Part shown: positions 1 to 24,771 of the stretch, piece by piece
Numbering within the stretch: position 1 is the first letter of the stretch
Layout: the number at the start of each line of letters is the position of its first letter
The notes under the pieces: generated by a model
The model's database searches: none
What the model was told of the DNA's origin: nothing
What the model saw: only the letters and a program-made list of their open reading frames with translations
Virus record (IMG/VR): IMGVR_UViG_2547132278_000006
Source: a virus
Taxonomy: Duplodnaviria > Heunggongvirae > Uroviricota > Caudoviricetes
Reading direction: 5' to 3' (one strand)
DNA length: 24,771 bases
Made by a program: the position numbers and the translations under genes

Positions 1-326
<326 letters not shown>

Positions 327-2488: not shown

Positions 2489-2489
2489 A

Positions 2490-3593: not shown

Positions 3594-3670
3594 AAAAACC
3601 TCACAAAGATAAGTAATCACTTATTCATTGTGTGAGTTTACATTTATTGAGAGAACAAGACCAGATAGAT

Positions 3671-3702
3671 AAAAAAATGGTGGCCACAGGCCACCAAAAA
3701 CG
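3671..3702 (-). terminator. rho-independent terminator (bidirectional hairpin flanked by A/T runs)
   Basis: AAAAAAA-TGGTGGCC-ACAG-GGCCACCA-AAAAA; on the minus strand the 8-bp GC stem is followed by T7, 60 nt downstream of the stop of CDS 3765..4634. Confidence 0.6.
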
Positions 3703-3764
3703 AATAGTTGTTTCAGAAATTTAACGCGCCAACGCAATATACACAGATAGATAACTACCTACAA

Positions 3765-4634: not shown

Positions 4635-4711
4635 GCTAGTTTTGTTCCTTCTTAATTCTTGTGATCCATTGTGGCCCAGCGTTGCCAGGCCACATAATGC
4701 TTTGTATCGGT

Positions 4712-5854: not shown

Positions 5855-5877
5855 GTGTTTTTCCTTTTTCTTTTTTG

Positions 5878-5955
5878 GTGCGTTTAAACAAGTTGTTATC
5901 TTATGTGTTTAAACAAGGCTTACAAATCAAAGAGAAGGTGGGGATATCCCCCACC
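5878..5955 (-). promoter_or_regulatory. nrdA-nrdB intercistronic element: two 14-bp direct repeats with a palindromic core, plus a GC-rich palindrome just after the nrdA stop
   Basis: TGCGTTTAAACAAG (5879-5892) and TGTGTTTAAACAAG (5904-5917), both containing the palindrome GTTTAAAC; GGTGGGGATATCCCCCACC at 5937-5955 lies 6 nt downstream of the nrdA stop. Confidence 0.35.
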
Positions 5956-5960
5956 ATATG

Positions 5961-8349: not shown

Positions 8350-8919
8350 TCAAATGAGAGACTTAAGAACATCGCGCACCTGGCGGAACTGATCTGTTTG
8401 CATACCGGTATGGATGGCAGCCACCGCATCAGCCAAATGTTCGTTTTTGTTCACGAGAACATCCTGTCCAGATTGCTTACGACGCAGCCACGGTGCTTTA
8501 GGGTGTTTTTTCGTAGCCCACTGGATAATCTCTTCTTTCGATGTAGTAAGTTTATTGCCGACAAAATGCTTGATTTCGTTTGGAGTAACCTGGATCAATG
8601 GCTTATCCACACACGCAAGTACACCGATACAAATACCGTAAGACGTCTGCGAACGAGAGTTTTGGCTCCCAACCGGTAGCTCACAAAAAACCATATTTGC
8701 CTTATCAATGATTGGCTTCGCAACACGCCATATTTCACTGGCTCGGCGCAGATCGTCACTGTTCACACGAACGGTCTTTTTGTTACTCCCCGCTTTAGTC
8801 TCAACAAGAGTAAGGCCGTGAATCTCAAGTTCGTCCGTCTCAAGGTCTAAAGTGCCCACAGCAAGCCCAAAGTTGCTCATTGAGGGATCAACACCAACTA
8901 CGCTGATTTTTTTACTCAT
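8350..8919 (-). CDS. RuvC-like Holliday junction resolvase
   Basis: N-terminal ISVVGVDPSMSNFGLAV (RuvC ILGIDPG...GYGV pattern), mid FCELP (catalytic Glu region), C-terminal LADAVAAIHTG (RuvC DAADALAIAITH pattern). Confidence 0.6.
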   Translation of the reverse strand: MSKKISVVGVDPSMSNFGLAVGTLDLETDELEIHGLTLVETKAGSNKKTVRVNSDDLRRASEIWRVAKPIIDKANMVFCELPVGSQNSRSQTSYGICIGVLACVDKPLIQVTPNEIKHFVGNKLTTSKEEIIQWATKKHPKAPWLRRKQSGQDVLVNKNEHLADAVAAIHTGMQTDQFRQVRDVLKSLI

Positions 8920-8928
8920 ATAGTCTCC

Positions 8929-9672
8929 TTACCATGTTCCCCATATAGGGTTTTCCAATAATCTCGCCTCCAACGAATTGGCTACTATTGCCGTTTGCAA
9001 CGTTGGTTGGGGATAGTTTGCAAAGTCTGAATACTCATTTTCCTGCGTGACACGTTTATCTGCGGCATGTTTAACACCACTTGCTATGAAATGACGCATG
9101 ATGCCCAACAGCCTCCGACTGTCTGCACTATCGTTTGCTAAAACATGAGGGAGCTGAAGTTCGATTTCTACCATTTCTCCATACTTACCAACAAACTGTA
9201 GTTTGTCCGCACTGTACTTTTTATCCCTCCTTTGGATAAGGAAACCAGTAAAAGCATCACCTGGCGATGCCAAACTATCCACCCGCTTATTGGCAAGTCG
9301 AATAAGGTTCGTGAAAGCCATACAGTGATGCGCACCCATTCCCCCAAAGAACCCTTCGCTATTAATGTTAAGATCTTCAGTTTCATGGGATGCAATAAAC
9401 CCAGGCCCGACGTTGGGAAGATATCCCCCCTCAACAAAAGGATTAATCAGGATCGGCGCAATACATCCAGGTGGTAGTGATTTCAAACTTTGCATCAATG
9501 GCGTCTCGGATATTAGACCAAGCAACGCGGCGAATTGTACTCCGTCAATATTGTTGCTGCCCCACAGAATACGTGGAGCCGCACCATTGGAAGTATGCCC
9601 ATTGATCAGTTTTATCGACTGCATCACTGCAAATACCTGCAAAAACTGCGAGCGACTTAATTTAAACGACAT
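8929..9672 (-). CDS. hypothetical protein (247 aa)
   Basis: Intact ORF between the resolvase and Rad50-like genes; its start overlaps the rad50-like stop by 11 nt; no confident motif. Confidence 0.55.
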   Translation of the reverse strand: MSFKLSRSQFLQVFAVMQSIKLINGHTSNGAAPRILWGSNNIDGVQFAALLGLISETPLMQSLKSLPPGCIAPILINPFVEGGYLPNVGPGFIASHETEDLNINSEGFFGGMGAHHCMAFTNLIRLANKRVDSLASPGDAFTGFLIQRRDKKYSADKLQFVGKYGEMVEIELQLPHVLANDSADSRRLLGIMRHFIASGVKHAADKRVTQENEYSDFANYPQPTLQTAIVANSLEARLLENPIWGTW

Positions 9673-11578
9673 AGCTGCGCCCCTCTTTAACTTCCAGCGT
9701 AATAGTTTCCCGGAACCATGACTTCATCTCTTTATGGGAGATAATCAGCACAGTACCTCGCTCGCGAGCTTTGGACTCCAGAATACCCATGAGGCGTTCA
9801 AGACCGGCTGTATCGAGTGCATCGTCAATTTCGTCGCCGATAAACAAATCGATGTTTTTACTCGCCCGGTTGCTAACCAGATCCTGCAATGCCAAAGAAC
9901 ACGCAATGCGAACCTTCCGCTTCTCACCACCAGAGAGGGTCTGGAACGACTTACTTGAACCTTTCTTCTGCACACTAATGTTGAATTTGTCGCGATACTC
10001 ACCTTTTTTAGTGACATCCATCGTCGACCACTCAGCAGTAATATTCCCGTCAGACAACGTATTGAGATACTCGGCAGTGCGTGTATTCAGGAAAGGCGTA
10101 ACAGACGTCAAAATATGAGAACGCACCCCGGCAGGAGAGTAGACCTGACGAGCTTTTTCCAATAGCAACGTTTGTTCCTGAATAGCCTTCAACTCATCTT
10201 TTAAGGACTTGAAGGTAGACTTACTGGATACCAGGTTATCTTCGTGTCTGGCGATAAGAGCAATAAACGGATTAATCTCTTTTGATATACGATCGACCTC
10301 AGTACGAGCACGAGTCACAAGAGACTCAATAGCAACAACCTCCTTCTCACGATGACGCAAAGATGAGAGTTGTTTCGTAAGCTCTTCAATCCGGGCAATG
10401 ATAGCCGTTACATCAGGTGTCGTTTTAACAAGGGCAGACTCAATGCTTAACGCTTTCTCAAGATTCGTTTTGTGTTTAGCCATTGCCTCTGCAAGTGTCT
10501 TCGCCTGACCAATTTCCTGACGTGCTTGTTCAATGAAATTCTCCTTCACCGTTGATAGATCTTCTTCGCAGTAGGCTTTGCCACAAGTAGGGCATGGTGA
10601 TCCCACTTTAGTACCAACCTCTTCTGCTTTGGTCTTAAAATTACGCGCGCGGTTCATTGCATCAGCCTGACTATTTTCTGTAGCTTTGATGCTTGCCCGA
10701 ATATCAGTTATCGCACCACGAACTTTGAGCAACTTGGCGTCATGTTCTTCTTTTGAGGCTAACTTTTTGCGCTCACTTTCGATTGCCTTCTCGGTATCAC
10801 GGATCTGTTCGGGAAGAGTGCGGATCTCAAGTTCAACTTCCGTTAACTCAACTTCGGCACTGGCCAGCCCAGCCAGGGCATCGTCATAACGTTTAGAACG
10901 CTCTTGCTCCCATGATTCAGAGGAGGCTTTCGCTGACTCAATTTCTGACTGTGTTGCCTCAATGGTCGAGATTGTCGACTCCAATTTGGTTTTAACCACA
11001 TCCATACGTGCGGCAGCTGCATTAGCTCGCTCACGAGCAATAGCGTAGGCGCGTGTCAGTCTGTCAACGCCAGCGGCTTCTTCTACGATGGTTTTGAGGT
11101 TTTTGTCGGACATTCCAGGTAAATCTGGCATAGCTTCTTGGCTCGCATAGATGGAAGCCATGAAAACCTCTTTAGATGCACCGATCAGACGCTCGACGAA
11201 CTCTTGCGTCAGCGCATCTTTGCCTTTCGTCATATCGCCGTCTTCACCACGAACGATAAGCCGATTTTTGAACTCTTTGTGTTTACGGTGACGAATGATC
11301 GCATATCTCTTGCCTTCATCCTCGATGGTTACTGCAACACGACAGTTCTTTTCATGGTCGGTAGACAACACATCGTCACCCTTCACACCATGAGCTGTTT
11401 CGCCATAAAGACACCACATCAGGCTATTCATTAGCGTTGACTTTCCAGAGCCATTACTTGATGCGGAACTATCATCACTATTAACACCCTGAATGAGCAC
11501 TAAACCACGCTGATCTAACTCGACCTCCGCGCTGGCGATAGCCATAAAATTCTCAACCTGGAGCTTTAAAAACTTCAT
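9662..11578 (-). CDS. Rad50/SbcC-like recombination ATPase (T4 gp46-like)
   Basis: Walker A NGSGKSTLMNSL, long coiled-coil region, zinc-hook CPTCG, ABC signature LSGGEKRKV, Walker B/D-loop LFIGDEIDDALD. Confidence 0.85.
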   Translation of the reverse strand: MKFLKLQVENFMAIASAEVELDQRGLVLIQGVNSDDSSASSNGSGKSTLMNSLMWCLYGETAHGVKGDDVLSTDHEKNCRVAVTIEDEGKRYAIIRHRKHKEFKNRLIVRGEDGDMTKGKDALTQEFVERLIGASKEVFMASIYASQEAMPDLPGMSDKNLKTIVEEAAGVDRLTRAYAIARERANAAAARMDVVKTKLESTISTIEATQSEIESAKASSESWEQERSKRYDDALAGLASAEVELTEVELEIRTLPEQIRDTEKAIESERKKLASKEEHDAKLLKVRGAITDIRASIKATENSQADAMNRARNFKTKAEEVGTKVGSPCPTCGKAYCEEDLSTVKENFIEQARQEIGQAKTLAEAMAKHKTNLEKALSIESALVKTTPDVTAIIARIEELTKQLSSLRHREKEVVAIESLVTRARTEVDRISKEINPFIALIARHEDNLVSSKSTFKSLKDELKAIQEQTLLLEKARQVYSPAGVRSHILTSVTPFLNTRTAEYLNTLSDGNITAEWSTMDVTKKGEYRDKFNISVQKKGSSKSFQTLSGGEKRKVRIACSLALQDLVSNRASKNIDLFIGDEIDDALDTAGLERLMGILESKARERGTVLIISHKEMKSWFRETITLEVKEGRSYVV

Positions 11579-11807
11579 ATAACACCTTTGATACCGTGTG
11601 TTAGCTTTTGACCTTCTTTCAATCTGAACTCCGTATGCGCCGGGAAGGATCTGCGCCTCAATACGCCTTTTCTGGTTAACCTTCCAAGATAAAACGCTAC
11701 GGGATTTCCTTGTGGCGGGTAGGGCTTGTGAAACATCACCGTCTGGCCTCGTTCAAGTCTTTTCATCGTGATGGCAAAGTCTCGAAAGCTCCCATAACGA
11801 CTTTGCC

Positions 11808-12893
11808 TCACACAGCCTCCGAACTCTCCGCTTCGGTGAGGATTTCCTGACACAAAATATCCAACTTGCTTAGATCAAATCCGCCGTCAGTATCGTGGAC
11901 AATCTTGCAATAAGCAGATACCGACTCTCCCAGGCTATCGATTTTGCTGGTTTCCGTTGTGCTTGCTGTCCCTTCCATCATTGATGACTTACGGATGAAG
12001 TTGCACACGACACCTTTTGCACCCATTGTTTTGAGGATGTTCTGGTACTTAATGCCTTCTTCATCGTTCTCAATTACGGCGCGGAAACGCACGTAGTTGC
12101 CGCGAATTTGGTCATCGGCAACATAATCTTCCAGGTTAATGAATTTAGGCGCACTGGTTTCGTAGTGACTGAAACTGCCGTCCGGGTTTACGATCATGTA
12201 ACCAGCCAGAGATCCAACATCTCCCCAATTTTGATGGGTCAGCGCACCGACACTGATAACTCCAGGAATGACCTCTTTATGGTTGTGGTAATGCCCACTA
12301 AGCACGAGACGAAAGCCGATATCCTTTAACTCCTGCGCATCGATACCGACGTCAGGCATTGTTGGAATGGCTTTGTTAATGGATGTATGGATAACAACGT
12401 CATGATTATCACCTTCTACGCTCTTACGTAATGCTTTCAGATCGCAGATAAGCTCTGCATGATTGTTACGCCAGCTAATCAGGTGGACAGTCACATCACC
12501 AATTTTTATTGAGTGTGGGCGTTTGCCACATACGATTACCACGCCGATAGAACTCAGCGATGCTGCTGCGTTGGCGCTATATACTGAATCGTTGGTTTCA
12601 AGATCGTGATTACCGGCCAGCATTACTACTGTCAGATCAAGCTCGTTGATAATCCACTTGTACGTTTCAGTTACGTAATGCAAAACAGAAGGGGACACAG
12701 TTCCTCGGACGTGAAATGTATCACCGGCAACCAACATGTACTTACAACCGGCCTTCTTCATGGCGATGGCTGCTTCTTTCGTTGCTTCCAACTGTATTTC
12801 AAGTCTGGAGTTAAGCCCCTCTGCGTTCGTCGTGGAGAACGCATCCCATTTGTGGTAGTGGCAGTCAGAAATGACGCCGTATGGCAAAGTCAT
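11808..12893 (-). CDS. Mre11/SbcD-like nuclease (calcineurin-like phosphoesterase; T4 gp47-like)
   Basis: Phosphoesterase motifs ISDCHYH, AGDTFH, GNHD, GHYH in canonical order; immediately upstream of the Rad50-like gene. Confidence 0.85.
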   Translation of the reverse strand: MTLPYGVISDCHYHKWDAFSTTNAEGLNSRLEIQLEATKEAAIAMKKAGCKYMLVAGDTFHVRGTVSPSVLHYVTETYKWIINELDLTVVMLAGNHDLETNDSVYSANAAASLSSIGVVIVCGKRPHSIKIGDVTVHLISWRNNHAELICDLKALRKSVEGDNHDVVIHTSINKAIPTMPDVGIDAQELKDIGFRLVLSGHYHNHKEVIPGVISVGALTHQNWGDVGSLAGYMIVNPDGSFSHYETSAPKFINLEDYVADDQIRGNYVRFRAVIENDEEGIKYQNILKTMGAKGVVCNFIRKSSMMEGTASTTETSKIDSLGESVSAYCKIVHDTDGGFDLSKLDILCQEILTEAESSEAV

Positions 12894-13147
12894 GTGTTTT
12901 TCCTTTGTGGTTATTTTGATACAAATTTTAAGAGCAATGAGGAGGTAAACAACTATGCATAACGGTATGTTAGGAATGAAACGAGCGTCTTAATATACAA
13001 AATTTATAAGTAAGTATATACCTATTTATTGTGGCGCAACTTTGCTTGTCTGTATGACTAAAAATAAGACAGGATCACTGTAGAACGCTATGAGAGCTAT
13101 TTTGAGGAGGCGTAGATTCTATCTACGCCAATATACGATCTGGAGGG

Positions 13148-13792
13148 TTACAGCGCGTCAGTGGGCTTTTTACGCGCTGCGTTTATGCTTATGACGCCAG
13201 CTTTTGGACGTGGGTCAACAAGGTTAAGCTCTTCTTCGCTGTGGTATTCGAGGTCGAACTCACGTTTTACATGTCTGATGTAGATTGCGGTGAGCAGGCT
13301 ATCTTTGGTCAGAAAGTGTCCGTAGGATTTGCGGATCACTTCTTCTACCTTCTCGATTTTCTCACCACCCATACAGAGATGATTAAACCGGCTGTGTTTC
13401 CGCAACATTTCGTATACTGGGCCTGAGTAAACCTTGTCTACTTTCCCAAAACGGATGATTTTCCCTGTGTCTGCGGATACGAGGCAAATCAGCTTGTCTG
13501 GTGATAAACGATCTCGCCACGTCACACCTGAACGGAGTGTGTTGAAGTAGGGAGCATCCAATCCGATGATCGGTTTACGAAATGCGAGTAATGGAACGTA
13601 CCTGATGCAACTGTTTAAATGAAAATTCACACCAGCCTTATCAAGTTTAATTCTGGTTTCGTAGATCGGGCACTTCGCCGCTATACCGCAGATGTCACAA
13701 AGCAACTTCTGCTTATTCAGGTTGGAATTTGATTCGATAGTGTAGGAGCCGTCTTCAAGACGACGAACCCAGCGCGTGCGTTTTAGATCCAT
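13148..13792 (-). CDS. hypothetical Cys-containing protein, divergent from repA and adjacent to the origin
   Basis: 214-aa ORF with clustered cysteines (LLCDICGIAAKCPIY...NSC); function unknown. Confidence 0.5.
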   Translation of the reverse strand: MDLKRTRWVRRLEDGSYTIESNSNLNKQKLLCDICGIAAKCPIYETRIKLDKAGVNFHLNSCIRYVPLLAFRKPIIGLDAPYFNTLRSGVTWRDRLSPDKLICLVSADTGKIIRFGKVDKVYSGPVYEMLRKHSRFNHLCMGGEKIEKVEEVIRKSYGHFLTKDSLLTAIYIRHVKREFDLEYHSEEELNLVDPRPKAGVISINAARKKPTDAL

Positions 13793-13870
13793 ATGTCATT
13801 TTTCTGTGATTGTTAGCCGAGGCAACGATAACCCACCAGGTGCGCCGAAGGTAGTAAATGCCTGTTTTAA

Positions 13871-13951
13871 TTATTCACATATCCACAGGATAGATCCTAA
13901 TAAAGAGATCCATAGATAGATCCTTATATAGATCAAATAAGATCCCCGATC
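13871..13951. promoter_or_regulatory. oriR-like origin element: tandem DnaA boxes followed by a cluster of six GATC (Dam) sites
   Basis: TTATTCACA (13871-13879) and ATATCCACA (13879-13887) are each 1 mismatch from the DnaA box TTATCCACA. GATC at 13893, 13907, 13919, 13931, 13941 and 13948, i.e. 6 sites in 59 bp within AGATCC-type repeats. Confidence 0.6.
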
Positions 13952-13991
13952 GCTGTAAGCCGCGCCACGCCTGGTCTAAAGTCATGTTCAT

Positions 13992-14093
13992 GTATGCTGT
14001 CAGCGGTAATTGATAGTCTGTCAGCGGTTCACCGTATGCTGCCAACTGTTTTTGGTATTCTGTCAGCGGCAAATCAAGTATGCTGTCAGCGGT
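13992..14093 (+). repeat. origin iterons: 5 direct repeats of a 16-bp unit (GTATGCTGTCAGCGGT) at 21-23 bp spacing
   Basis: Units start at 13992 (perfect), 14013, 14034 (degenerate), 14055 and 14078 (perfect); phased at about 2 helical turns; they end 20 bp before the repA ATG, so they overlap the repA promoter region. Confidence 0.8.
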
Positions 14094-14113
14094 TGAATGA
14101 CAAAGGTGTCCAC

Positions 14114-15208
14114 ATGTCCACAAAAAATAAAAAAGGTAAAAATAACAAAGAAGTAGAAGATAACATCGACAACTTTGAAGAAGGTTCCCTTGAATTGTAC
14201 ACAGGGGAACTTGTCCCTAATAGCAACAATACAGTCCAACCAATTGCGTTGATGCGACTGGGGTTGTTCGTCCCCACGCTTAAGGGAACAAAATACAGTA
14301 AACGTAACAAGCCAAATGAGATCGATGCTTCAAAGGAGCTTGTCCAGCTCGAAGTAGCCCGTTCTGAAGGCTATTCCGATATCAAGATAACCGGTCCTCG
14401 TCTCGACATGGATCATGATTTCAAAACGTGGGTGGGCGTTGTGCGTTCGCTGGCAGAATACGGCGAACCTAACGGTCGTGTCGAGTTAAGCATCACGAAA
14501 TTTGCTAAGTTTTGTGGCTATCCATCGTCACAGATCCGCAAAACACTCCGCGACCGGCTTACAAACAGTCTTTTGAAGATCATGCGTACAACTCTGTCTT
14601 TCCAGAGAACGTATGAAGAAAAGAACGTCGACGGCTCTAACAAGATCTCGCTTCTGATGGTGCACCTCATCAATAGCGTGGACTACAACGAGCAGAAAGA
14701 TACGGTGGTGTTCTATGCAGAACCGAAGCTGGCCGAACTATATCGCTTTGACCATAAGGTTCTTTTGCAGTTAAAGGTTATCAATAAGCTACCACGCAAA
14801 GAAACAGCACAGGCTCTGTACACCTTCATCGAAAGTCTTCCAACCAAGCCTGCGCCGGTATCGCTTGCTCGATTGCGTGCGCGACTCAATTTGAGTAGCA
14901 GGAATGTAAGCTCGCAGAATCAGACTATACGTAACGGCTTAAAAGCTCTCCAAGATTTGGGCTATCTCGAATACAGCGAGATTAAGCGAGGGCGGTCGAT
15001 CTATATCCAGATTCACAGCCGTAATCCAAAACTTAAAGTCGCACCGCCAAAACCTGAAGACATCGAACCCAAAAAACCAGATGAGAAAGCCGGGGAAATT
15101 GATGCTAAACAGAACATTATCAACAAGATAACTGAACTTTCGCAGAATTTGACGCCTGAAAATATCAAGATGATTGAGATCCTTTCCAATAGTCTCAAAC
15201 TGCTTTGA
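14114..15208 (+). CDS. repA: iteron-binding replication initiator (RepA-like), 365 aa
   Basis: The only substantial plus-strand gene; flanked upstream by 5 iterons and downstream by 12. Start taken at ATG 14114 (MSTKNKKGK...); the ORF track's 5' extension to 13994 runs through the iterons. Assignment is mainly contextual (P1/F-type organisation). Confidence 0.7.
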   Translation: MSTKNKKGKNNKEVEDNIDNFEEGSLELYTGELVPNSNNTVQPIALMRLGLFVPTLKGTKYSKRNKPNEIDASKELVQLEVARSEGYSDIKITGPRLDMDHDFKTWVGVVRSLAEYGEPNGRVELSITKFAKFCGYPSSQIRKTLRDRLTNSLLKIMRTTLSFQRTYEEKNVDGSNKISLLMVHLINSVDYNEQKDTVVFYAEPKLAELYRFDHKVLLQLKVINKLPRKETAQALYTFIESLPTKPAPVSLARLRARLNLSSRNVSSQNQTIRNGLKALQDLGYLEYSEIKRGRSIYIQIHSRNPKLKVAPPKPEDIEPKKPDEKAGEIDAKQNIINKITELSQNLTPENIKMIEILSNSLKLL

Positions 15209-15740
15209 TATGCTGTCAGCGGTGAAATGTATGCTATCAGCGGCTATTTTTCTGAAATGTATGCTGTGAACGGTTAAAGATATGCTACCAGCGGTATAGT
15301 GAGATGAACGTATGCTGTGAGCGGTAAATCATCTATCACCACTCAATGCTCTGTCATACCTCCCCAGTGGTTACTAACCTCGAAGAGTGCATTCCATATA
15401 GGTTTGCGCTCACTAACATTCTATTGCTATTGCGCTGATTGCTTGTAGTGAAAGGCATTTATTGCCTGCTGCTCCCTGATAGAACGTATGCTGTCAGCGG
15501 TGTTTTATTGAGGAATTTTTGTTTGGATATGCTATCAGCGGTAATTAATGGTATATGTCAGACCTTCGTATGCTGCCAGCGGTAATTTTGTTCTGGTTAT
15601 ACCCATACCGGTACACATTATTCATGCAATGTCTTAAGTATGCTGCCAGCGGTAAAAAATCGAGTAAAGTATGCTGTGAGCGGTGATATAGACTCTCGAT
15701 ATGCTATCAGCGGTAGTTGATTGTGTATGCTGTCAGCGGT
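15209..15740 (+). repeat. incA-like copy-control array: 12 direct iterons of the same 16-bp unit
   Basis: Units start at 15209, 15230, 15260, 15281, 15311, 15486, 15527, 15568, 15638, 15669, 15699 and 15725, all same orientation; most spacings are about 21, 30-31 or 41 bp (roughly 2, 3 and 4 helical turns), with 26 and 70 bp as exceptions; 0-3 mismatches to consensus; a 160-bp iteron-free spacer at 15327-15485. Confidence 0.8.
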
Positions 15741-15757
15741 GACGACTATGAAATATG

Positions 15758-15780
15758 ACTGCGGAACGAGCCGCAGTCAG
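15758..15780. terminator. stem-loop (GACTGCGG-AACGAG-CCGCAGTC) at the end of the iteron array
   Basis: 8-bp perfect inverted repeat followed on the plus strand by TTTGCATTT; lies between the iterons and the convergent CDS 15788..16000. Confidence 0.35.
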
Positions 15781-15787
15781 TTTGCAT

Positions 15788-16000
15788 TTAGTGTATTTTC
15801 TTTAACAGACCCCAAAGTGTTCCGGCTTTTGTAGTCAGTTTTCCTGTTTCTGGATCGTACATACGCCATTCACGCCGCTGGTGGACGATATACCCATCTT
15901 CACGTTCCAGACGCTCAAGAATGCCAGGCTGCTTGAAACCCTTAGCACGCCAGTAGCCGCTTGTTTTCTCGATTTCCAGACCTGCCAGTGTTAATGCCAT
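15788..16000 (-). CDS. hypothetical small protein (70 aa)
   Basis: ORF whose start overlaps the upstream gene's stop (ATGA at 16000); no motif. Confidence 0.5.
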   Translation of the reverse strand: MALTLAGLEIEKTSGYWRAKGFKQPGILERLEREDGYIVHQRREWRMYDPETGKLTTKAGTLWGLLKKIH

Positions 16001-16335
16001 TACCCAACCTCCTTGCAGTCATCGAAAAGGTAGCTTTGCTGAGAAGCGTGAACGCCATAAAAGCCCTTGTATTTGTTGTATACGAAGTGGTCTTCTCCGA
16101 CGCCGGTTAATTTGCCATTACGATTTGTGAGATATGGGGATGACAACACTCGATCGTCACGCACAATATAGAACTGGTCGCCGCTGTCTACGACCATCGC
16201 TCCATATGGTGCTTTTATGACGTCGGTAAGAGCGCCATTCTTAACGTCGGCTACAGACATTTCACACTGATAAACAGTGGTGTCGGCCACAACGATCGAA
16301 GAAAGAAACAACAGCGCGAATGGGATGGTCTTCAT
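16000..16335 (-). CDS. small secreted protein with N-terminal signal peptide (111 aa)
   Basis: MKTIPFALLFLSSIVVADTT has n/h/c-region character; two Cys (mature N-terminus and C-terminus) could form a disulfide. Confidence 0.6.
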   Translation of the reverse strand: MKTIPFALLFLSSIVVADTTVYQCEMSVADVKNGALTDVIKAPYGAMVVDSGDQFYIVRDDRVLSSPYLTNRNGKLTGVGEDHFVYNKYKGFYGVHASQQSYLFDDCKEVG

Positions 16336-16511
16336 GCTGCCACCTCTTTGATTACATCAAATGCTGAATTAAATACGAGCACGATAGCCAAAGCGTTTAT
16401 GACTACGTCGTGCACCGGGGAAAAGACTTTACGAATGACACCAGTGAAAATGCAGTCGATGACAAAAGCTATTGAAACGATGAGTAACAAGTATTCAATA
16501 AAAATCTTCAT
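16332..16511 (-). CDS. small hydrophobic membrane protein (59 aa), not in the supplied ORF track
   Basis: Hand translation: MKIFIEYLLLIVSIAFVIDCIFTGVIRKVFSPVHDVVINALAIVLVFNSAFDVIKEVAA; two hydrophobic segments; its stop overlaps the next gene's ATG (ATGA at 16332-16335). No obvious SD. Confidence 0.4.
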   Translation of the reverse strand: MKIFIEYLLLIVSIAFVIDCIFTGVIRKVFSPVHDVVINALAIVLVFNSAFDVIKEVAA

Positions 16512-16550
16512 GATAGGTAGATACTAACTTATATAAACTTTACTGTAAAC

Positions 16551-16826
16551 TCACTCAAAAGTGCTGATGCTTAAAATACGCTCAAGATGTTCAGCATCTT
16601 CATTACTGATTTGTTGAGTCTCTTCTACGTACCAACAGTTGCCGTTATGCCAACAAACACCATCATCATCAACCATCACTGAATCAGCGTCATGACCTGT
16701 ATATTCAACAAGAGTACGCTGGATCAGCGTGTCAGTTTCTTCATCGTTAAGGCCATCGACTTTGACCATAAAAAGCGGAAACACGTCATAGACAGTGCTG
16801 GTAACGATTCGAACTAAAACTCTCAT
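16551..16826 (-). CDS. small strongly acidic protein (91 aa)
   Basis: About 18 Asp/Glu against about 5 basic residues; preceded by the conserved ACCACAAAAGGAAAAACAC-ATG initiation cassette. Confidence 0.6.
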   Translation of the reverse strand: MRVLVRIVTSTVYDVFPLFMVKVDGLNDEETDTLIQRTLVEYTGHDADSVMVDDDGVCWHNGNCWYVEETQQISNEDAEHLERILSISTFE

Positions 16827-16881
16827 GTGTTTTTCCTTTTGTGGTTAGTGTTTACTTATTTTGTTAGTTATGAATAGGCGA

Positions 16882-17307
16882 TCAATCTTCTTGGTTAGGG
16901 AAAAACTGTTCAATAACTCTGTCAACGGCTGTGTCTATATGGAGTAGATGCCACACAACCATATCTTTGCTTCCCATGCCTTGTGTGAATATCACGTCAT
17001 ACTTACGCCATGCGCAGTGGAACCAATATGCTGAGTCATCAATTGGTAAATCCTCTCCCGCCTCTTTGAAGTATTTCAGCAGCATTGCCTGCTCTGCCGT
17101 TGGCGTTGGACCTATTTCCTGAGCGTACATACGGATGAATCGCTGCCAGTCTGTCTCGTCGGGGGTTGGATCTGGTGGGGTCATTTCTGCGATAGCGTTT
17201 CGTAGCTGATGCGCCCAATCAGGTTCAGGAAAGCCTTTTGCTACTTCATCATCAATAACATCCAGAGCCACGTTTGCGGCATCGTAGAGTTTCTTAATAA
17301 CTGTCAT
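16882..17307 (-). CDS. hypothetical acidic protein (141 aa)
   Basis: Intact ORF rich in Asp/Glu and Pro; no motif recognised. Confidence 0.55.
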   Translation of the reverse strand: MTVIKKLYDAANVALDVIDDEVAKGFPEPDWAHQLRNAIAEMTPPDPTPDETDWQRFIRMYAQEIGPTPTAEQAMLLKYFKEAGEDLPIDDSAYWFHCAWRKYDVIFTQGMGSKDMVVWHLLHIDTAVDRVIEQFFPNQED

Positions 17308-17356
17308 GTTTTCTTAGCCTTTTAAACAAATTGTTTTCTTAATAAGATAATTGCGA

Positions 17357-17384
17357 TAAAAAAGGCGTCCAACTGGACGCCTGA
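17357..17384 (-). terminator. rho-independent terminator
   Basis: Minus strand: AGGCGTCC-AGTT-GGACGCCT followed by TTTTTTATC; 15 nt downstream of the SPFH gene stop. Confidence 0.6.
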
Positions 17385-17398
17385 ACTTTTAAGGGGAG

Positions 17399-18229
17399 TT
17401 ATTTCACTGTAATGAAAGGAGTGTTAGCCCCTTGAGTCATGTACTGCGGTAACTGGCCATTCCATTTATTGATGGCTTCCAGCTCCATAACGTTCGGGTT
17501 TTGACGCAGAGCTTCACCGCGCAGACGAATGGCGTCTGCTTCTGCTTGCGCACGAGCACGGATAGCATCAGCTTCACCATTAGCCTGTTCACGTAGCATA
17601 TTCGCCTCAGCTTTACGCTGTTCAACTTCCTGCTGGCGTTGCAGAGTACGCTGGTTAGCCGTTACTTTGGCGTTGATAGATTCAATGACGGTTTTTGGGT
17701 AATCAGGCTTTCCAACCCATGACAGGCTCAGTACCTCAATACCAACCGGAGACATCTCTTTCTGAATGTCTTTCAGTGCGTTGTCCAGCAATTGCGCCTT
17801 ACCACCGTCGATAAATGAGTCAGTGGTCATACGGCTGGCCAAACGGTTTAGAGAGTCGGCAATTTTCTGACGCAGATCTGATTCGGTGATATCGTCTACG
17901 CCTTTGCGATAGGTCTGGAACACCGTCGTTACCTTGTCACGATTAACCAGATACGCAACGCCAATTTTGTGACCAATAGCAGTACCGTCACTCATCTGGA
18001 ATGTGAACGGCTCGTCGTAGGTCTTCATTTGTTTGAAGGTCGGGAATACGTAAAGTTCGGTGTTAAGACCTGTCCATTGGCGACCAACGCCAACCACTTC
18101 ACCGATCCCTTTGTCTTCACCTAATTTGTTTACTTTGATGCCAACGTATCCAGGCTCCACGCGATCACAGCCAGTAAGACCCATTGTGCAAATAGCCGCC
18201 AGAGCAACTGCAAGTAAACCTTTCTTCAT
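17399..18229 (-). CDS. SPFH/band-7 (prohibitin/HflC-like) lipoprotein
   Basis: Signal peptide with lipobox MKKGLLAVALAAICTMGLTGC; SPFH-like core and an Ala/Glu/Arg/Gln-rich coiled-coil tail (QRQQEVEQRKAEANMLREQANGEADAIRARAQAEADAIRLRGEAL) typical of HflK/C-type proteins. Confidence 0.75.
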   Translation of the reverse strand: MKKGLLAVALAAICTMGLTGCDRVEPGYVGIKVNKLGEDKGIGEVVGVGRQWTGLNTELYVFPTFKQMKTYDEPFTFQMSDGTAIGHKIGVAYLVNRDKVTTVFQTYRKGVDDITESDLRQKIADSLNRLASRMTTDSFIDGGKAQLLDNALKDIQKEMSPVGIEVLSLSWVGKPDYPKTVIESINAKVTANQRTLQRQQEVEQRKAEANMLREQANGEADAIRARAQAEADAIRLRGEALRQNPNVMELEAINKWNGQLPQYMTQGANTPFITVK

Positions 18230-18232
18230 TAC

Positions 18233-18433
18233 TTATTTCCCCTTTGCTTTGATTAATGAGTTGATAAACTTACGACCAGCAATAAGACCGATTACAGGAG
18301 CACCAAAACCAACGATAACTCCAAACATGACGGCTAAATCACTCTTGGTAGAAATCAGCGACGGAACCAGTAAACCGTAGATGAGAGCCACTGAAACGCC
18401 TGTGGCTACTGCCAATAGATAGATTTTGATCAT
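18233..18433 (-). CDS. small two-TM membrane protein (66 aa), cotranscribed upstream partner of the SPFH lipoprotein
   Basis: Two hydrophobic helices; stop 3 nt before the SPFH start; conserved initiation cassette (CCACATAGGAAAACAC-ATG) upstream. Confidence 0.6.
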   Translation of the reverse strand: MIKIYLLAVATGVSVALIYGLLVPSLISTKSDLAVMFGVIVGFGAPVIGLIAGRKFINSLIKAKGK

Positions 18434-18462
18434 GTGTTTTCCTATGTGGTTGTTATGCGAAA

Positions 18463-18491
18463 ATAATAAGTAAGTACTTATATATTTTCAA
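18463..18491 (-). promoter_or_regulatory. sigma70-like promoter for the small-TM/SPFH operon
   Basis: Minus strand TTGAAA-N17-TATTAT (5/6 and 5/6 to consensus), about 30 nt upstream of the ATG at 18433; the spacer holds the near-palindrome ATATATAAGTACTTACT. Confidence 0.45.
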
Positions 18492-18492
18492 G

Positions 18493-18522
18493 AGATAAAA
18501 AAGGCGTCCTGTGGACGCCTTG
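18493..18522 (-). terminator. rho-independent terminator
   Basis: Minus strand: AGGCGTCC-ACA-GGACGCCT followed by TTTTTTATC; 4 nt downstream of the recA-like stop; same stem sequence as the terminator at 17357. Confidence 0.6.
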
Positions 18523-18525
18523 TGT

Positions 18526-19599
18526 TTACTCTTCTACTGACTCGGTGGGGTTGTCTTTTGCTCTTCGGTCGTCGATTGCCTGCAAAGCCGCAATGATTTC
18601 AGCCAGTGGCTTCTCCCGATACATCTCGACGATCTGCGATTTGGTGTATTTCTTGTCACCAATTTCAACTCGCCCGCTGGCGTTCTTTGGCAGGTATCCT
18701 TCTTCCAGCATGTACTCGACGAGCGATTCGATAACGTCGAGGCCACGAGTAGGATCGAAGTAGAATTTCCAGGTGCATTTGCCATACGGTGGTGCAACTT
18801 TGTTTTTGATGCATTCTGCGCCTACGTCCTGGCCGATCTTCTCTTTACCATCCTTCATCACCGATGCACCAAGACGGATACGTACAGAAGCGTAGAACTT
18901 CGGTGAATCTCCACCTGGCGACGTAGTAGGGTCGCCAAACATTACACCGATTTTTGTGCGAACCTGATTCAAGAAGATGATGCAGGCGTTGTATTTGCGT
19001 GCCCACAAAGCCAGAGTAGGGAAGTTCGCACTTGTCGCACGAGCCAGTGCCGTATTGTCGTTCATGTTTAGCTGATCTTTGTCTTTGGCAGTGCCTTCAG
19101 CCATCTTTTCGAACTTCTCGGCTTTGGAGTTCGGAACCATAGACGCAAGTGAGTCAGCCACGATACAGATAGGTGCTGATTCAGGGATAAGCTCTTCATC
19201 ACGTACCAATTTAAGTATTGTGCCGATCAACTCTACAGAGTCTTCGAAGGTGTCAGGCTGCTTGTATACCCACTGACCGTCATCCTCATCTGCGTTCAGG
19301 CCATTGGCTACAGCCAGGCCAACGTCAAAACTGTTTTCATGATCGAGGAATACCGCCAGACCATCTTGTTTTTGAGCGGAGATCATCGCTGCTGTTGCAA
19401 GGAACGTTTTCCCTGCACTTGGAGGACCGAATACTTCGACGATACGACCACATGGGAAGCCGCCATCGTAACGACCAGAAATAGCTTTGTTTAACGGTGG
19501 AAAGCCTGTATCAATCCAATGAGTTACTTTCTGAATTTCGTCGTTGCTACCGATTTTCTTTTTCAGAGCAAGTGCCAGTGCGGATTTTCCTTTTGCCAT
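18526..19599 (-). CDS. recA: RecA-family recombinase
   Basis: Walker A GRIVEVFGPPSAGKTFLA; FLNQVRTKIGVMFGDPTTSPGGDSPKFYASVRIRLG is near-identical in pattern to recalled E. coli RecA ([36 protein letters not shown]). Confidence 0.9.
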   Translation of the reverse strand: MAKGKSALALALKKKIGSNDEIQKVTHWIDTGFPPLNKAISGRYDGGFPCGRIVEVFGPPSAGKTFLATAAMISAQKQDGLAVFLDHENSFDVGLAVANGLNADEDDGQWVYKQPDTFEDSVELIGTILKLVRDEELIPESAPICIVADSLASMVPNSKAEKFEKMAEGTAKDKDQLNMNDNTALARATSANFPTLALWARKYNACIIFLNQVRTKIGVMFGDPTTSPGGDSPKFYASVRIRLGASVMKDGKEKIGQDVGAECIKNKVAPPYGKCTWKFYFDPTRGLDVIESLVEYMLEEGYLPKNASGRVEIGDKKYTKSQIVEMYREKPLAEIIAALQAIDDRRAKDNPTESVEE

Positions 19600-19601
19600 G
19601 A

Positions 19602-19874
19602 TCAGGCTCCTTTTGTTTCGTTGATTCGTTTTAAAGCGGCGGATTCATCGAATACAATCGCATCGTGGTTAAGGAGTCTGGATACACGAGCGAGGATTTT
19701 TACGACCTGCTCGCTGACTAATCCAAACTCGCGATCTGTCGCTTTCATTCCGGCAGCGCCTAGAATTGACGGCAGTGCGATGACAGCGTACTCACCGTGA
19801 TAAAAGACAATCTCTTTTGCCAGTTGGGCAGGGGTGGTTGTAGCGCCATTGATAATCGATTTAAGCATTAGCAA
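19602..19874 (-). CDS. hypothetical protein (90 aa)
   Basis: ORF between the FEN and recA-like genes, overlapping the FEN 3' end by 7 nt; no motif. Confidence 0.45.
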   Translation of the reverse strand: MLMLKSIINGATTTPAQLAKEIVFYHGEYAVIALPSILGAAGMKATDREFGLVSEQVVKILARVSRLLNHDAIVFDESAALKRINETKGA

Positions 19875-20812
19875 TACCTTTCGAATGGAAGAACAAACAC
19901 TTCAAGGTCTTCAAGGAACGAACGGAAATTCAGCTCGTAGCACAGTTGCTCGAATGCTTTCACGTCACGATTGCCTTTGATTGTTTCGATTTCGGTAGGC
20001 GGAAACTTCGTCTCAATCAGGTTCATTAGCGTGATGTTTCTCTTGAACGCTTCGAGCATTCGACAGCCTGTTTTCTCGTTGAAGGCATTCTTCGCTAGTT
20101 TGTTGAAGGCGGTCTTATGGCGTCCTTTGTCAACCACGATTGAGCCGTCGTTGATGCCGCGTACCATCGTTGCGACACTTCCCCATTCATGCAGCAGCTC
20201 TTTCGCACCGCCAGCACCAATGCCACCAACACCGCTAATATTGTCCGATTTATCGCCTTGTAATGCTTTTGCTTCCAAAAATGCGCGAGGAGTAGCGAAT
20301 CCTGTCAGCTCCGCAAATTGCTCAAAATTAACCTGCTTGTTTTTGGCGTCTTCGCGCAGGCTTACCCAGCTTACGTTTTCGCGAACTAACTGAAGCCAGT
20401 CGCTATCGCCTGTTAACAGATAGATGTGTTCAACGATTGGCTGCGGTGCAATGCTGGCTACCAGCAGCCCGGCCAGATCATCCGCTTCTGCATCTTTTGC
20501 AATGAGTTGGGTAACTCCAAGCGCGGTCATCATTTTGAGGATGTATGGCTTCTGGATAGCAAAGCCTTCCTTCATCTTTTTCATATCAGGATCGTCGTCG
20601 CGATTTGCTTTGTAGTCCGGGTAAAAGTCGCGACGCTTGTCACTAAATCCATCCCAAAGAATCATAGGTCGGGCATGGAGGATGGAGGCATAACGACGGA
20701 CGTTCTTAACAAAGCCGAAAGCAGCCTGTACTTCCATTTCGCCGTTGTGCAATTTGTCAGATTGTTGGTGGTAATAACCCAGGCTATTGCCATCTACGAA
20801 GAGATAATTCAC
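19868..20812 (-). CDS. flap endonuclease / 5'-3' exonuclease (T5 D15 / T4 RNase H family)
   Basis: YLFVDGNSLGY, AKDAEADDLAGLL, TGDSDWLQLV and H3TH-like GDKSDNISGVGGIGAGGAKELL. Start is uncertain: the ORF track starts at GTG 20863, but that places a strong terminator hairpin inside codons 2-9; GTG at 20812 follows the hairpin and has GGAAGGAA upstream, so it is preferred here. Confidence 0.85.
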   Translation of the reverse strand: MNYLFVDGNSLGYYHQQSDKLHNGEMEVQAAFGFVKNVRRYASILHARPMILWDGFSDKRRDFYPDYKANRDDDPDMKKMKEGFAIQKPYILKMMTALGVTQLIAKDAEADDLAGLLVASIAPQPIVEHIYLLTGDSDWLQLVRENVSWVSLREDAKNKQVNFEQFAELTGFATPRAFLEAKALQGDKSDNISGVGGIGAGGAKELLHEWGSVATMVRGINDGSIVVDKGRHKTAFNKLAKNAFNEKTGCRMLEAFKRNITLMNLIETKFPPTEIETIKGNRDVKAFEQLCYELNFRSFLEDLEVFVLPFERYC

Positions 20813-20825
20813 CGGTACATTCCTT

Positions 20826-20858
20826 CCAAAAAGTAAGGCGTCCGTAGACGCCTTACTG
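20826..20858 (-). terminator. rho-independent terminator downstream of the SSB gene
   Basis: Minus strand: GTAAGGCGTC-TACG-GACGCCTTAC followed by TTTTTGG; 15 nt after the SSB stop; shares the AAGGCGTC/GACGCCTT stem core with the terminators at 17357 and 18493. Confidence 0.55.
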
Positions 20859-20872
20859 GTCACGTAATGGGA

Positions 20873-21901
20873 TTACAGAGAGTCCAGCTCTCTCAGTAGG
20901 TCATCCAGACCTTCATCTTCCGTCGCAGATGCGGCTGCTACAGATGTCGCTGCGACTGCTTCAGACTCTTTGACTGATACTGCAACGGCAGCGGGACTTG
21001 CTTCTGGTTTAAATTCAGTTTCAACGGCACGGAGGATTTCTTCATCAACCAGACTGGTTGGTTCAGAAGCTGGGGTATGAGCGGTAGCTACAGCAGTCGC
21101 ACCCTCCGTATGACCAGTGACAGAGCCAAATCCAGGTAGTGCCGCAGCCGATGTTTTCGCGGTTGAGGAAATTGCTGGTGCAGATGCTGCGGCAGTTGGT
21201 GCAGCGATGCCAATCAGACGACCCATAGTGCGAACTGTCGACAGAAGACGAGTTTCATCAGCTTGATTTGCGTATGCGATCAGATCATGCTGGGTATTCC
21301 AGAATTTATCTTCGATATCGCCTTTGTAGACTTTACGCTTAGGCGAGACGTCATATTTGGTATCGCGACCAGAGCCAGTACGTTTAATCAGGAATGCGTA
21401 GCCTTCCTCTTTGCTCAGTGGATTGCCGATATCATCAGCGATGTCTTCGGTGATTGCTTTGCAGATATCATCGAATACAGTAGACGGCAGCTCGATTAAC
21501 TGGCATTTCTCAGCATCTGCGAAATCCTCACGAGCAGAAAGAATGCCGTTGACCAGGTAGCGAGGAGTGGCACGCATTTGACCGATGCGTTCTTCCATTG
21601 CTTTGTTACCCTTGTGACGAGCGCGACCTTCCATCACCATTTCGCATAGCTGACAAGCGCGACCGTGAGTATGTTGCTCACAAATATAAGCGTTGGTTGC
21701 TTCTTTACCTTCCTCGTTCTGATACTTAACGTAGTGCATACCGAAAGTCTGGAAGAACTTACCGTTTGGGTCGTCTTTATTCGGGAAGATGCGGATATAG
21801 TTGACGCCGTCTTTTAAGCGAGTCAGATCAACGTTGTTACCACGTTTGGCGGCAATGTCTTCACGAGTTTTGTTAAGCAAATCAAGTAATGTCTTAGACA
21901 T
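20873..21901 (-). CDS. gp32-like single-stranded DNA-binding protein
   Basis: IRIFPNKDD matches T4 gp32 IRFLPSKND; Zn-ligand pattern H...C...C-x2-C (CEQHTHGRACQLCEM); Ala/Thr/Ser-rich low-complexity linker; acidic C-terminal tail (EDEGLDDLLRELDSL, compare gp32 DDIDNLLNEI). Confidence 0.75.
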   Translation of the reverse strand: MSKTLLDLLNKTREDIAAKRGNNVDLTRLKDGVNYIRIFPNKDDPNGKFFQTFGMHYVKYQNEEGKEATNAYICEQHTHGRACQLCEMVMEGRARHKGNKAMEERIGQMRATPRYLVNGILSAREDFADAEKCQLIELPSTVFDDICKAITEDIADDIGNPLSKEEGYAFLIKRTGSGRDTKYDVSPKRKVYKGDIEDKFWNTQHDLIAYANQADETRLLSTVRTMGRLIGIAAPTAAASAPAISSTAKTSAAALPGFGSVTGHTEGATAVATAHTPASEPTSLVDEEILRAVETEFKPEASPAAVAVSVKESEAVAATSVAAASATEDEGLDDLLRELDSL

Positions 21902-22018
21902 GTGTTTCTCCTTGTTGTGATTTGGCCGATGGCGCTATGCGCGTTGGGCTTTCGTTCATTCGTGGCTCTTTCGAGCTGTTAAATGATAGATCAGTACTTA
22001 CTTATTATCTATCAAAAA

Positions 22019-22450
22019 TCAACGGGGAGTAATAAAGCGTTCAGAGCCTAATCGCTCTAATTCAACGATGGCCATCTTTGACGCCTGAACGATCATGTCT
22101 CGGCGATGCGAAAAGGCGGCGACAGCATGTTTGTATATGTCTGCGATGTGCCGTGCTTCATCCAACTTCTGCCTTTTAGACAGATACTGTGGGTTTGTTT
22201 TAACCTTAGCGTCCAGTACAGATTCGTTGAACTTAATGCCGTTCATACTCAAGTTCTTACGCTCTGTGTCGTATAGCTTTGCTTCAACAGCTTCAAGGTT
22301 AAGTTTTGCCTCTGCGACACTTCTTTCTGCATGAGCGAGTTTTGAGCCATACTCCATTAAAAGGCGGGGTTGTCTACGCCAGACTTCCTCCAGATTGTCT
22401 CGGTCAAACTCGAGATCAGACATTATTTTCTCGTAAATATCGGTGATCAT
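22019..22450 (-). CDS. hypothetical protein, possibly UvsY-like recombination mediator
   Basis: 143 aa (T4 UvsY is 137 aa); LLMEYGSKLA...AEAKLNLEAVEAKLYD loosely parallels recalled UvsY LYSKWL...AQKKVALKARLDYY; sits next to the gp32-like gene in a RecA/Mre11/Rad50 context. Functional call is weak. Confidence 0.45.
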   Translation of the reverse strand: MITDIYEKIMSDLEFDRDNLEEVWRRQPRLLMEYGSKLAHAERSVAEAKLNLEAVEAKLYDTERKNLSMNGIKFNESVLDAKVKTNPQYLSKRQKLDEARHIADIYKHAVAAFSHRRDMIVQASKMAIVELERLGSERFITPR

Positions 22451-22482
22451 GTGCTTTCCTTTTTACTTATCATCTTATATTG

Positions 22483-22520
22483 ATTATATCATTGTGATGA
22501 TAAGGCAAGGAGTTCGAGGA
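22483..22520 (-). promoter_or_regulatory. candidate promoter with extended -10 (TGATATAAT) upstream of the UvsY-like gene
   Basis: Minus strand TTGCCT-N14-TATAAT with TG at -15/-14; -10 hexamer at 22483-22488, about 30 nt upstream of the ATG at 22450. Confidence 0.4.
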
Positions 22521-22544
22521 TAGGGGATATGAGGGGATAAGAGA

Positions 22545-22569
22545 AAACATGGCCATAGAGGCCATGTTT
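22545..22569 (-). terminator. stem-loop downstream of the polymerase gene
   Basis: AAACATGGCC-ATAGA-GGCCATGTTT, a 10-bp perfect stem 7 nt after the polymerase stop; the 3' tract is only moderately T-rich. Confidence 0.4.
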
Positions 22570-22575
22570 ATGGGA

Positions 22576-24485: not shown

Positions 24486-24771
<286 letters not shown>

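Follow-up and report, generated by a model that had tools for sequence, protein, structure and literature searches.

The stretch of viral DNA analysed here (IMG/VR record IMGVR_UViG_2547132278_000006; 24,771 nucleotides, the whole of which we refer to as the window) is, as judged by sequence comparison, the DNA-replication, recombination and nucleotide-supply block of an Escherichia coli phage-plasmid of the SSU5/pHCM2 type, a family that ranks among the most common phage-plasmids of Enterobacteriaceae. We consider it highly probable that this DNA-metabolism block combines two replication systems, most likely one per lifestyle: an iteron replicon of the P1 type for the plasmid state, and a family-C polymerase with a T4-like recombination set for the lytic state.

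A preliminary description of positions 8350-22450, made from the letters alone, had proposed a gp32-like single-stranded-DNA-binding protein (SSB), a UvsY-like candidate, a recombinase closer to bacterial RecA than to UvsX, a Mre11/Rad50 pair, a RuvC-type resolvase and a flap endonuclease (FEN), with a family-C polymerase and a plasmid RepA iteron replicon amid the block, and had regarded the mixture as unusual and assembled from phage, host and plasmid sources. Our searches have borne out the recombination genes and the replicon, including the gp32-like and UvsY-like calls, whose failure would have undone the proposal. The polymerase is indeed of family C, but its gene lies beyond those positions, at 22576-24485, and only as a C-terminal fragment. 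The mixture is not unusual: this combination of genes is a hallmark of the SSU5/pHCM2 family and is already known.

Membership of the SSU5/pHCM2 family

The comparison of the window with public records places it in a well-described family. Bases 327-24485 share 99.3% DNA identity with plasmid NZ_CP024271 of E. coli, and at least 80% of the window is covered by each of 100 PLSDB records; the DNA identity is 96.7% with Escherichia phage Cyrano, and 77.7% over 85% of the window with Salmonella phage SSU5. The collinear proteins are 73-95% identical to those of SSU5 and, for most genes, 94-100% identical to those of Cyrano, whose record (OV696614) carries functional labels that match our calls (RuvC, SbcCD, RepA, RecA, gp32-like SSB, UvsY, Pol III alpha). 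The exact UvsY-like protein of the window is listed by 9134 blocks of a public assembly collection, so the element is very common. The gene order of related phage-plasmids, a check that the preliminary description had suggested, is the same in the Cyrano, SSU5 and pHCM2 types as in the window, from the dnaQ-like gene to dnaE. There are about 27 plausible genes in the window, all on the minus strand except repA; scans for Rfam families and tRNAs over the window found nothing.

The SSU5 supergroup has been described by Pfeifer et al., who count resolvases and RecA-like proteins among its persistent genes (PMC7969092). In E. coli LF82, Cyrano is the plasmid pLF82, present at about 5.5 copies per cell, and its virion production is raised 39-fold by ciprofloxacin (PMC9928086). 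The replication genes of SSU5 have been typed as IncFIB in a preprint (10.1101/2025.09.12.675607); a plasmid nearly identical to the window is typed in PLSDB as rep_cluster_488. The structural, packaging and lysis genes, of the siphovirus kind, and the partition system are carried by Cyrano and SSU5, the window itself being closed off by IS100 at either end.

Cyrano differs from the window in a RecA intein and in a HicA/HicB pair, which separates the uvsY-like gene from dnaE and has no counterpart in the window (22450-22610). It differs also in dnaE (22610-24485), which is only 82-83% identical in DNA, against 96-98% elsewhere; yet the protein encoded by the window is 95% identical to that of SSU5, and the backbone is thus a mosaic.

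The recombination and polymerase proteins

The RecA-family recombinase matches bacterial RecA structures in the Protein Data Bank (PDB) at 1e-31 to 6e-35, and T4 UvsX at 1e-5; in pairwise comparison it scores 133 bits against E. coli RecA (31.8% identity) and 43.5 bits against UvsX (22.1%). Its score with the NCBIfam RecA equivalog TIGR02012 is 153.7 bits, under the cutoff of 325.3 bits. In many relatives, including Cyrano, recA is interrupted by a 1.26-kb intein that contains a LAGLIDADG endonuclease, so that the product has 779 aa (locus L001, 22377-23641; also loci L008, L014 and L015); the window gene is free of it at the corresponding site (about 19408-19410, codon ~64).

The two subunits of the SbcCD-like nuclease resemble their T4 counterparts more than those of the host: the SbcC-like ATPase scores 81 bits against T4 gp46 over its full length and 33 bits against E. 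coli SbcC, and the SbcD-like nuclease scores 47 bits against T4 gp47 and 25 bits against E. coli SbcD. The gp32-like protein exceeds the PF08804 cutoff of 26.8 bits with 224.7 bits, and it has an acidic C-terminal tail and a Cys/His motif, CEQHTHGRACQLC, that aligns to the zinc region of T4 gp32.

For the resolvase, the evidence comes from the predicted fold and from conserved residues. The AF2 model (pLDDT 90.4) retrieves bacterial RuvC structures as its top 11 Foldseek matches (E 6.6e-9 to 4.6e-7, those from Deinococcus, Pseudomonas, Thermus and E. coli lying at 6.6e-9 to 8e-8). Across 24 homologues, residues D11, E80, H161 and D164 never vary, a D-E-H-D set that we take to correspond to the variant found in Thermus RuvC. 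The window protein itself has no RuvC family match in Pfam or NCBIfam, while PF02075 is present in some of its homologues. A sequence-only search of the PDB returned nothing for this protein, nor for the gp32-like protein, the UvsY-like protein or RepA.

The UvsY-like protein calls for both fold and profile comparison. Its AF2 model, built with 18 homologues, has a pLDDT of 91.7, and its 19 best PDB matches in Foldseek are all T4 UvsY (TM 0.65-0.93), the next match having a TM of 0.51. When the family was enlarged to 3440 representatives (50%-identity clusters, E <= 0.001) and aligned by hhalign to eight bona fide UvsY proteins, the two profiles matched with a probability of 92.2% and E 5.8e-7 over 104 collinear columns. 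The match is significant only with family profiles on both sides: against the single T4 UvsY sequence, the probability is 0.2% for the 18-sequence alignment and 4% for the enlarged family. Judging from the model and the profiles, the protein is a distant branch of the UvsY family, since neither PF11056 nor any other Pfam family is matched in any of the 18 homologues; the call stands, though it is the weakest of the set. NCBIfam, too, has no UvsY family match for it. The same domain often occurs as the C-terminal part of proteins of 290-420 aa (representatives P0204-P0340); in gp100 of Pseudomonas phage nickie, it occupies the C-terminal third of the 426 aa (locus L007, 13010-14290).

As for the polymerase, the full-length DnaE encoded by a plasmid nearly identical to the window retrieves Pol III alpha structures from the PDB at 1e-109 to 1e-121, and the intact relatives are 1172 aa long, with all domains (PHP, palm/NTPase, fingers and HhH). 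The fragment in the window keeps the fingers, the HhH and the C-terminal part; the N-terminal half with PHP and palm is missing, cut off by IS100. Some relatives have dnaE in two open reading frames (ORFs; 787 and 389 aa), split by a 244-aa HNH_3/NUMOD3 homing-endonuclease gene (loci L013, 1-3875, and L026, 3975-8287).

The replicon and its exchange between backbones

The iteron core TATGCTGYSAGCGG is present in 18 copies, where chance would give 0.47: five precede repA, 12 follow it, and one weak copy is inside the gene. The upstream copies are preceded by two DnaA-box-like 9-mers and by an AT-rich stretch where GATC sites are denser than anywhere else in the window (6 in 59 bp, with 0.35 expected per 64 bp). 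Over 79% of its length, RepA shares 43.5% identity with its P1/P7 counterpart (E 1e-64). The mechanically called ORF extends from 13994 to 15208, and RefSeq annotates a RepB-family protein of 404 aa from 13994; because the first 40 codons of this longer frame merely translate the iterons, as repeated LSAV/LSAA, the true start is probably the ATG at 14114, giving 364 aa. By analogy with P1, we infer that the downstream array of twelve iterons acts as an incA-like copy-number control.

The comparison of relatives has revealed which part of the replicon is exchanged. The segment from 13954 to 15770 (five iterons, repA, twelve iterons) has no DNA similarity to the corresponding part of Cyrano (locus L001, 16627-18735), within a backbone that is 96-98% identical. 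The DnaA-box/GATC segment (13871-13952), the part of the origin that would call on host factors, is kept in all four elements compared, the window and Cyrano as well as SSU5 and a Klebsiella phage-plasmid. The RepA of the window is 48-50% identical to those of Cyrano and SSU5, and 84-88% identical to those of Klebsiella phage-plasmids. Two iteron/RepA types thus occur on the same backbone, TATGCTGTCAGCGG versus ATCCACTATAGAGAG; the ATCCACTATAGAGAG type is that of Cyrano and SSU5, and the type of the window is shared with Klebsiella phage-plasmids. On this sequence evidence, it is only the 1.8-kb iteron-repA-iteron cassette that appears as a plasmid-derived, exchangeable module. The cassette used for IncFIB-type typing being exchangeable between near-identical backbones, replicon typing alone can mis-group such elements.

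The IS100 ends

At both ends of the window lies the istB end of an IS100 copy, the two in inverted orientation. The left boundary sequence, ...CCGTCATTGACA, stops at 326, and homology with Cyrano and with NZ_CP083502 begins at 327, within the gene annotated as "3'-5' exonuclease" (CYRAN_77 and K9U09_RS24455, respectively). In this copy, dnaE and the dnaQ-like gene, the two polymerase genes of the phage, are both disrupted by IS100; repA and the iterons are intact. With these two genes disrupted, the copy may represent a defective phage maintained as a plasmid. A search of 5,426 complete E. coli genomes and of PLSDB recovered neither junction. The coordinates of all features are listed in the table.

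Table. Features of the window, with strand and the evidence or remark for each
Position	Strand	Feature	Evidence or remark
1-326	+	IS100 (IS21 family), 3' end including the istB end	Pfam IstB_IS21 7.8e-24; 98-99% identity with IS100 copies; marks the left edge of the phage-plasmid segment
327-467	-	DnaQ-like 3'-5' exonuclease gene, N-terminal remnant (~47 codons)	IS100-cut
958-1602	-	AAA_28 kinase-like	Pfam
1602-2078	-	DHFR	Pfam
2075-2584	-	PNKP-phosphatase-like	Pfam
2490-3620	-	Thymidylate synthase	Pfam
3765-4634	-	MazG-like	Pfam
4712-5854	-	NrdB	Pfam
5961-8276	-	NrdA	Pfam
8350-8919	-	RuvC-like Holliday-junction resolvase	phrog_159 3e-57
8929-9672	-	Conserved protein, 247 aa, between sbcC and ruvC	phrog_2117
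9662-11578	-	SbcC/Rad50-like ATPase, T4 gp46-like subunit	Pfam AAA_23, SMC_N, SbcC_Walker_B; phrog_77 4.5e-165
11575-11853	-	Small ORF between sbcD and sbcC	phrog_37951; kept in Cyrano, SSU5 and a Klebsiella relative
11808-12893	-	SbcD/Mre11-like nuclease, T4 gp47-like subunit	Pfam Metallophos 3e-9; phrog_100 2.1e-92
13148-13792	-	Conserved island gene	phrog_2105; annotated in Cyrano as ASCH-domain protein
13871-13887	+	DnaA-box-like 9-mers, two in tandem	
13893-13951	+	AT-rich stretch with 6 GATC sites	
13993-14092	+	Five iterons, core TATGCTGYSAGCGG	21-23 bp spacing; putative origin and repA promoter region
14114-15208	+	repA, P1/RepFIB-type replication initiator	Pfam Rep3_N 5.2e-9; phrog_775 6.9e-133
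15209-15739	+	Twelve iterons downstream of repA	All in one orientation
15788-16000	-	P1 Cra-like	
16000-16335	-	phrog_2077	
16551-16826	-	phrog_2209	
16882-17307	-	DUF7238	
17399-18229	-	SPFH/stomatin-like	
18233-18433	-	Small membrane protein, 66 aa	
18526-19599	-	RecA-family recombinase, intein-free	Pfam RecA 2.2e-42
19602-19874	-	Small conserved ORF between FEN and recA	phrog_2207
19868-20863	-	5'-3' exonuclease / FEN	Pfam 5_3_exonuc_N 1e-23, 5_3_exonuc 5e-12; NCBIfam Pol I 5' domain and Xni
20873-21901	-	gp32-like SSB	Pfam PF08804 1.7e-66; phrog_1192 6.9e-116
22019-22450	-	UvsY-like recombination mediator	Fold and profile-profile comparison; phrog_231 1.1e-4
22576-24485	-	dnaE (Pol III alpha), C-terminal ~636 of 1172 codons	Pfam DNA_pol3_finger 9.4e-45, HHH_6
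24486-24771	-	Second IS100 copy, 3' end, inverted relative to the first	Pfam IstB; reverse complement 99.65% identical to window 41-326

Proposed division of labour

The division of labour that we propose, together with recombination-dependent replication itself, is drawn from homology and gene content. In the plasmid state, by analogy with P1, RepA would bind the origin iterons and, with host factors and the host replisome, would sustain low-copy theta replication, the downstream iteron array limiting the copy number. In the lytic state, the replisome would be formed around DnaE alpha, the DnaQ-like exonuclease, FEN and the gp32-like SSB; intact relatives also encode a DnaB-type helicase, a primase, a ligase, UvsW and RNase H, all located outside the window. 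The gp46/47-like SbcCD nuclease would resect DNA ends, the UvsY-like mediator would load the RecA-family recombinase on gp32-coated single-stranded DNA, RuvC would cut branches before packaging, and NrdAB, ThyA, DHFR and MazG would supply the dNTPs. As in T4, the lytic set could thereby drive an origin-independent replication that is primed by recombination.

Age of the gene set and alternative explanations

The comparison with two more distant phages, both siphoviruses of ~110 kb, bears on the origin of the gene set. In Pseudomonas phage nickie (Nickievirus), DnaE, the UvsY-like domain, the gp32-like protein, FEN, RecA, SbcD, SbcC, RuvC, NrdA and NrdB are collinear with the window at 23-46% protein identity; in Stenotrophomonas phage BUCTxx99, DnaE, the gp32-like protein, FEN, RecA, SbcD and SbcC occur in the order of the window, while UvsY, RuvC and Nrd were not detected in its locus. 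Both phages lack RepA, iterons and the island genes between recA and sbcD, and among the 67 Cyrano proteins compared with nickie, 38 have collinear homologues and RepA, ParA, the integrase and the repressor have none. Nickievirus phages have been reported as lytic, without lysogeny genes (PMC8537276). Since the same order occurs in nickie without RepA, DnaE and the recombination set suffice for a phage without a plasmid replicon; as far as sequence comparison can tell, they are an old phage backbone. Homologues of the Cyrano "ParB", of a ParB-like nuclease, of two ABC-type ATPases and of UvsW also occur in nickie in the same order (locus L018, 1624-6849, versus Cyrano 103502-108041), and Cyrano ParA has no counterpart there; in SSU5-type elements, the ParB-like genes may thus serve the phage and not plasmid partition.

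The assembly from phage, host and plasmid sources that the preliminary description had suggested can be judged against this comparison. Under that explanation, the window would be a recent and unusual hybrid, with recombination genes from a T4-like phage, DnaE and RecA from the host and RepA from a plasmid, and it finds some ground in the bacterial-type families of RecA and DnaE, in the plasmid/P1 type of RepA and in the demonstrable exchange of the repA cassette. The plasmid part of the suggestion stands, as the cassette is swappable and is absent from nickie. The host part does not: the identity to the E. coli counterparts is 30.2% for DnaE and 31.8% for RecA, against 35-46% to the nickie proteins, RecA falls under the equivalog cutoff, and the order DnaE-UvsY-gp32-FEN-RecA-SbcDC-RuvC-Nrd is common to nickie and, largely, to BUCTxx99. 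This shared order and the collinearity of 38 out of 67 Cyrano proteins make the combination old and typical of a phage lineage, and we regard a recent chimera as very improbable. We reject DnaE and RecA as recent host captures on their identities to E. coli and on the synteny with nickie.

A tentative, broader reading, which taken jointly we hold possible at somewhat under even chances, is that SSU5-type phage-plasmids are the plasmid-prophage branch of a ~110-kb siphovirus lineage whose lytic branch is Nickievirus, with lytic replication primed by recombination in the manner of T4 and centred on a polymerase of family C, a recombinase of the RecA type and a mediator of the UvsY family; and/or that plasmid life was added through a P1-type replicon in the recA-sbcD gap, the initiator part being swapped as the 1.8-kb cassette and the DnaA-box/GATC part remaining constant. 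Several observations weigh against the two-system explanation proposed above. The recombination proteins are very distant from those of T4: the gp32-like protein matches T4 gp32 pairwise only at E 0.07, FEN scores 25 bits, the UvsY-like protein has no pairwise BLAST match to T4, and neither the helicase loader gp59 of T4 nor its endonuclease VII turned up. Each of the two DnaA-box-like sites has one mismatch, and the window shows no enrichment of sites of this kind (9 against 5.8 expected). The missing halves of dnaE and of the dnaQ-like gene, if kept at all, would lie beyond the IS100 copies. Literature searches on the replication of SSU5 or pHCM2, and on phages with DnaE, UvsY and gp32, returned no experimental study of how SSU5-type elements replicate or of such a combination of polymerase, recombinase and mediator.

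Two further explanations concern the function of the genes rather than their origin. It is nearly an even question whether the window is an IS100-bounded, 24-kb defective remnant that does not work as a phage replication module and provides at most plasmid replication and accessory or repair functions. The inverted IS100 ends, the reduction of dnaE to 636 of 1172 codons and of the dnaQ-like gene to ~47, and the absence of the junctions from the complete genomes and PLSDB, so that the configuration is rare, all point this way; on the other hand, the 25 other genes are intact, and most are 96-100% identical to those of Cyrano, which produces virions, short-read contigs also break at identical repeats, so that the remainder may adjoin IS copies, and host Pol III might replace the disrupted polymerase genes. 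Rather unlikely, in our judgement, is that the recombination genes serve repair, the handling of plasmid multimers or counter-defence, with lytic replication starting from a dedicated origin with the phage helicase, primase and DnaE. The DnaB-type helicase and primase of the relatives are typical of origin-dependent replisomes, recombinases for dimer resolution are common on plasmids, and RecA and resolvase genes are among the persistent genes of SSU5-type phage-plasmids (PMC7969092). The presynaptic set (SSB, mediator, recombinase, resection nuclease, UvsW and resolvase) is, however, clustered with the polymerase and kept in nickie. As T4 uses both origin-dependent and recombination-dependent modes, such roles and recombination priming are not exclusive.

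Neighbouring genes

The gap between recA and sbcD contains only one or two small genes in nickie and BUCTxx99; in the phage-plasmids, it holds a variable island together with the replicon. The accessory genes of the island (15788-18433) have no homologue in the nickie or BUCTxx99 loci, and PADLOC identified nothing among the island genes. The cargo differs between relatives (SPFH and DUF7238 in the window; in SSU5, an acetyltransferase and a DUF2591 protein; in a Klebsiella element, a DUF4041 protein), which makes the gap a cargo hot spot. Another E. coli relative carries, after recA and at the place of the SPFH gene, a type I restriction-modification system with HsdM, HsdS, DUF4268 and HsdR (locus L026, 13057-18845). 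The SPFH/stomatin-like gene (17397-18173) has about 76% DNA identity to genes of the unrelated phages phiP27 and P88; its protein is 100% identical to that of Cyrano, and the adjoining 66-aa membrane protein is 71% identical.

Between sbcC and ruvC, the phrog_2117 protein has no match in Pfam, NCBIfam or PADLOC and no detectable homologue in nickie; being 42-47% identical in SSU5 and Klebsiella relatives, where its neighbours are 81-87% identical, it appears to be fast-evolving. For the nucleotide-supply block (958-8276), the annotations of Cyrano and SSU5 agree with the Pfam calls. Little of this gene content is new, as the Cyrano record OV696614 already annotates these genes alike; in RefSeq, the gp32-like, UvsY-like, RecA-like and RuvC-like genes are still listed as "hypothetical", and each of these calls can be supported.

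Comparison with T4 and P1

The lytic set of the window shares with T4 the homologues of gp32, UvsY and gp46/47, with UvsW being carried by the relatives, and the T4 order 47-46.2/46.1-46 is mirrored by the 47-like gene, the small ORF and the 46-like gene. The remaining components differ: the recombinase of T4 is UvsX, whereas that of the window is closer to RecA; the resolvase of T4 is endonuclease VII (gp49), whereas that of the window has the RuvC fold; and the polymerase of T4 is the family-B gp43, whereas that of the window is of family C, with DnaE and a DnaQ-like exonuclease. Neither gp59 nor a clamp or a clamp loader, as in T4, was identified.

The replicon can be compared with oriR/repA/incA of P1, where DnaA boxes, a GATC-rich and AT-rich segment, five iterons and repA are followed by a second iteron array. 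The layout of the window replicon follows this arrangement, with DnaA-box-like 9-mers of one mismatch each in the position of the DnaA boxes. It differs from P1 in the iteron sequence, TATGCTGYSAGCGG, and in its twelve downstream copies, which all have one orientation. The two replicons differ also in their surroundings: the P1 replicon is located next to parABS, whereas the replicon of the window is located inside a phage replication and recombination operon.

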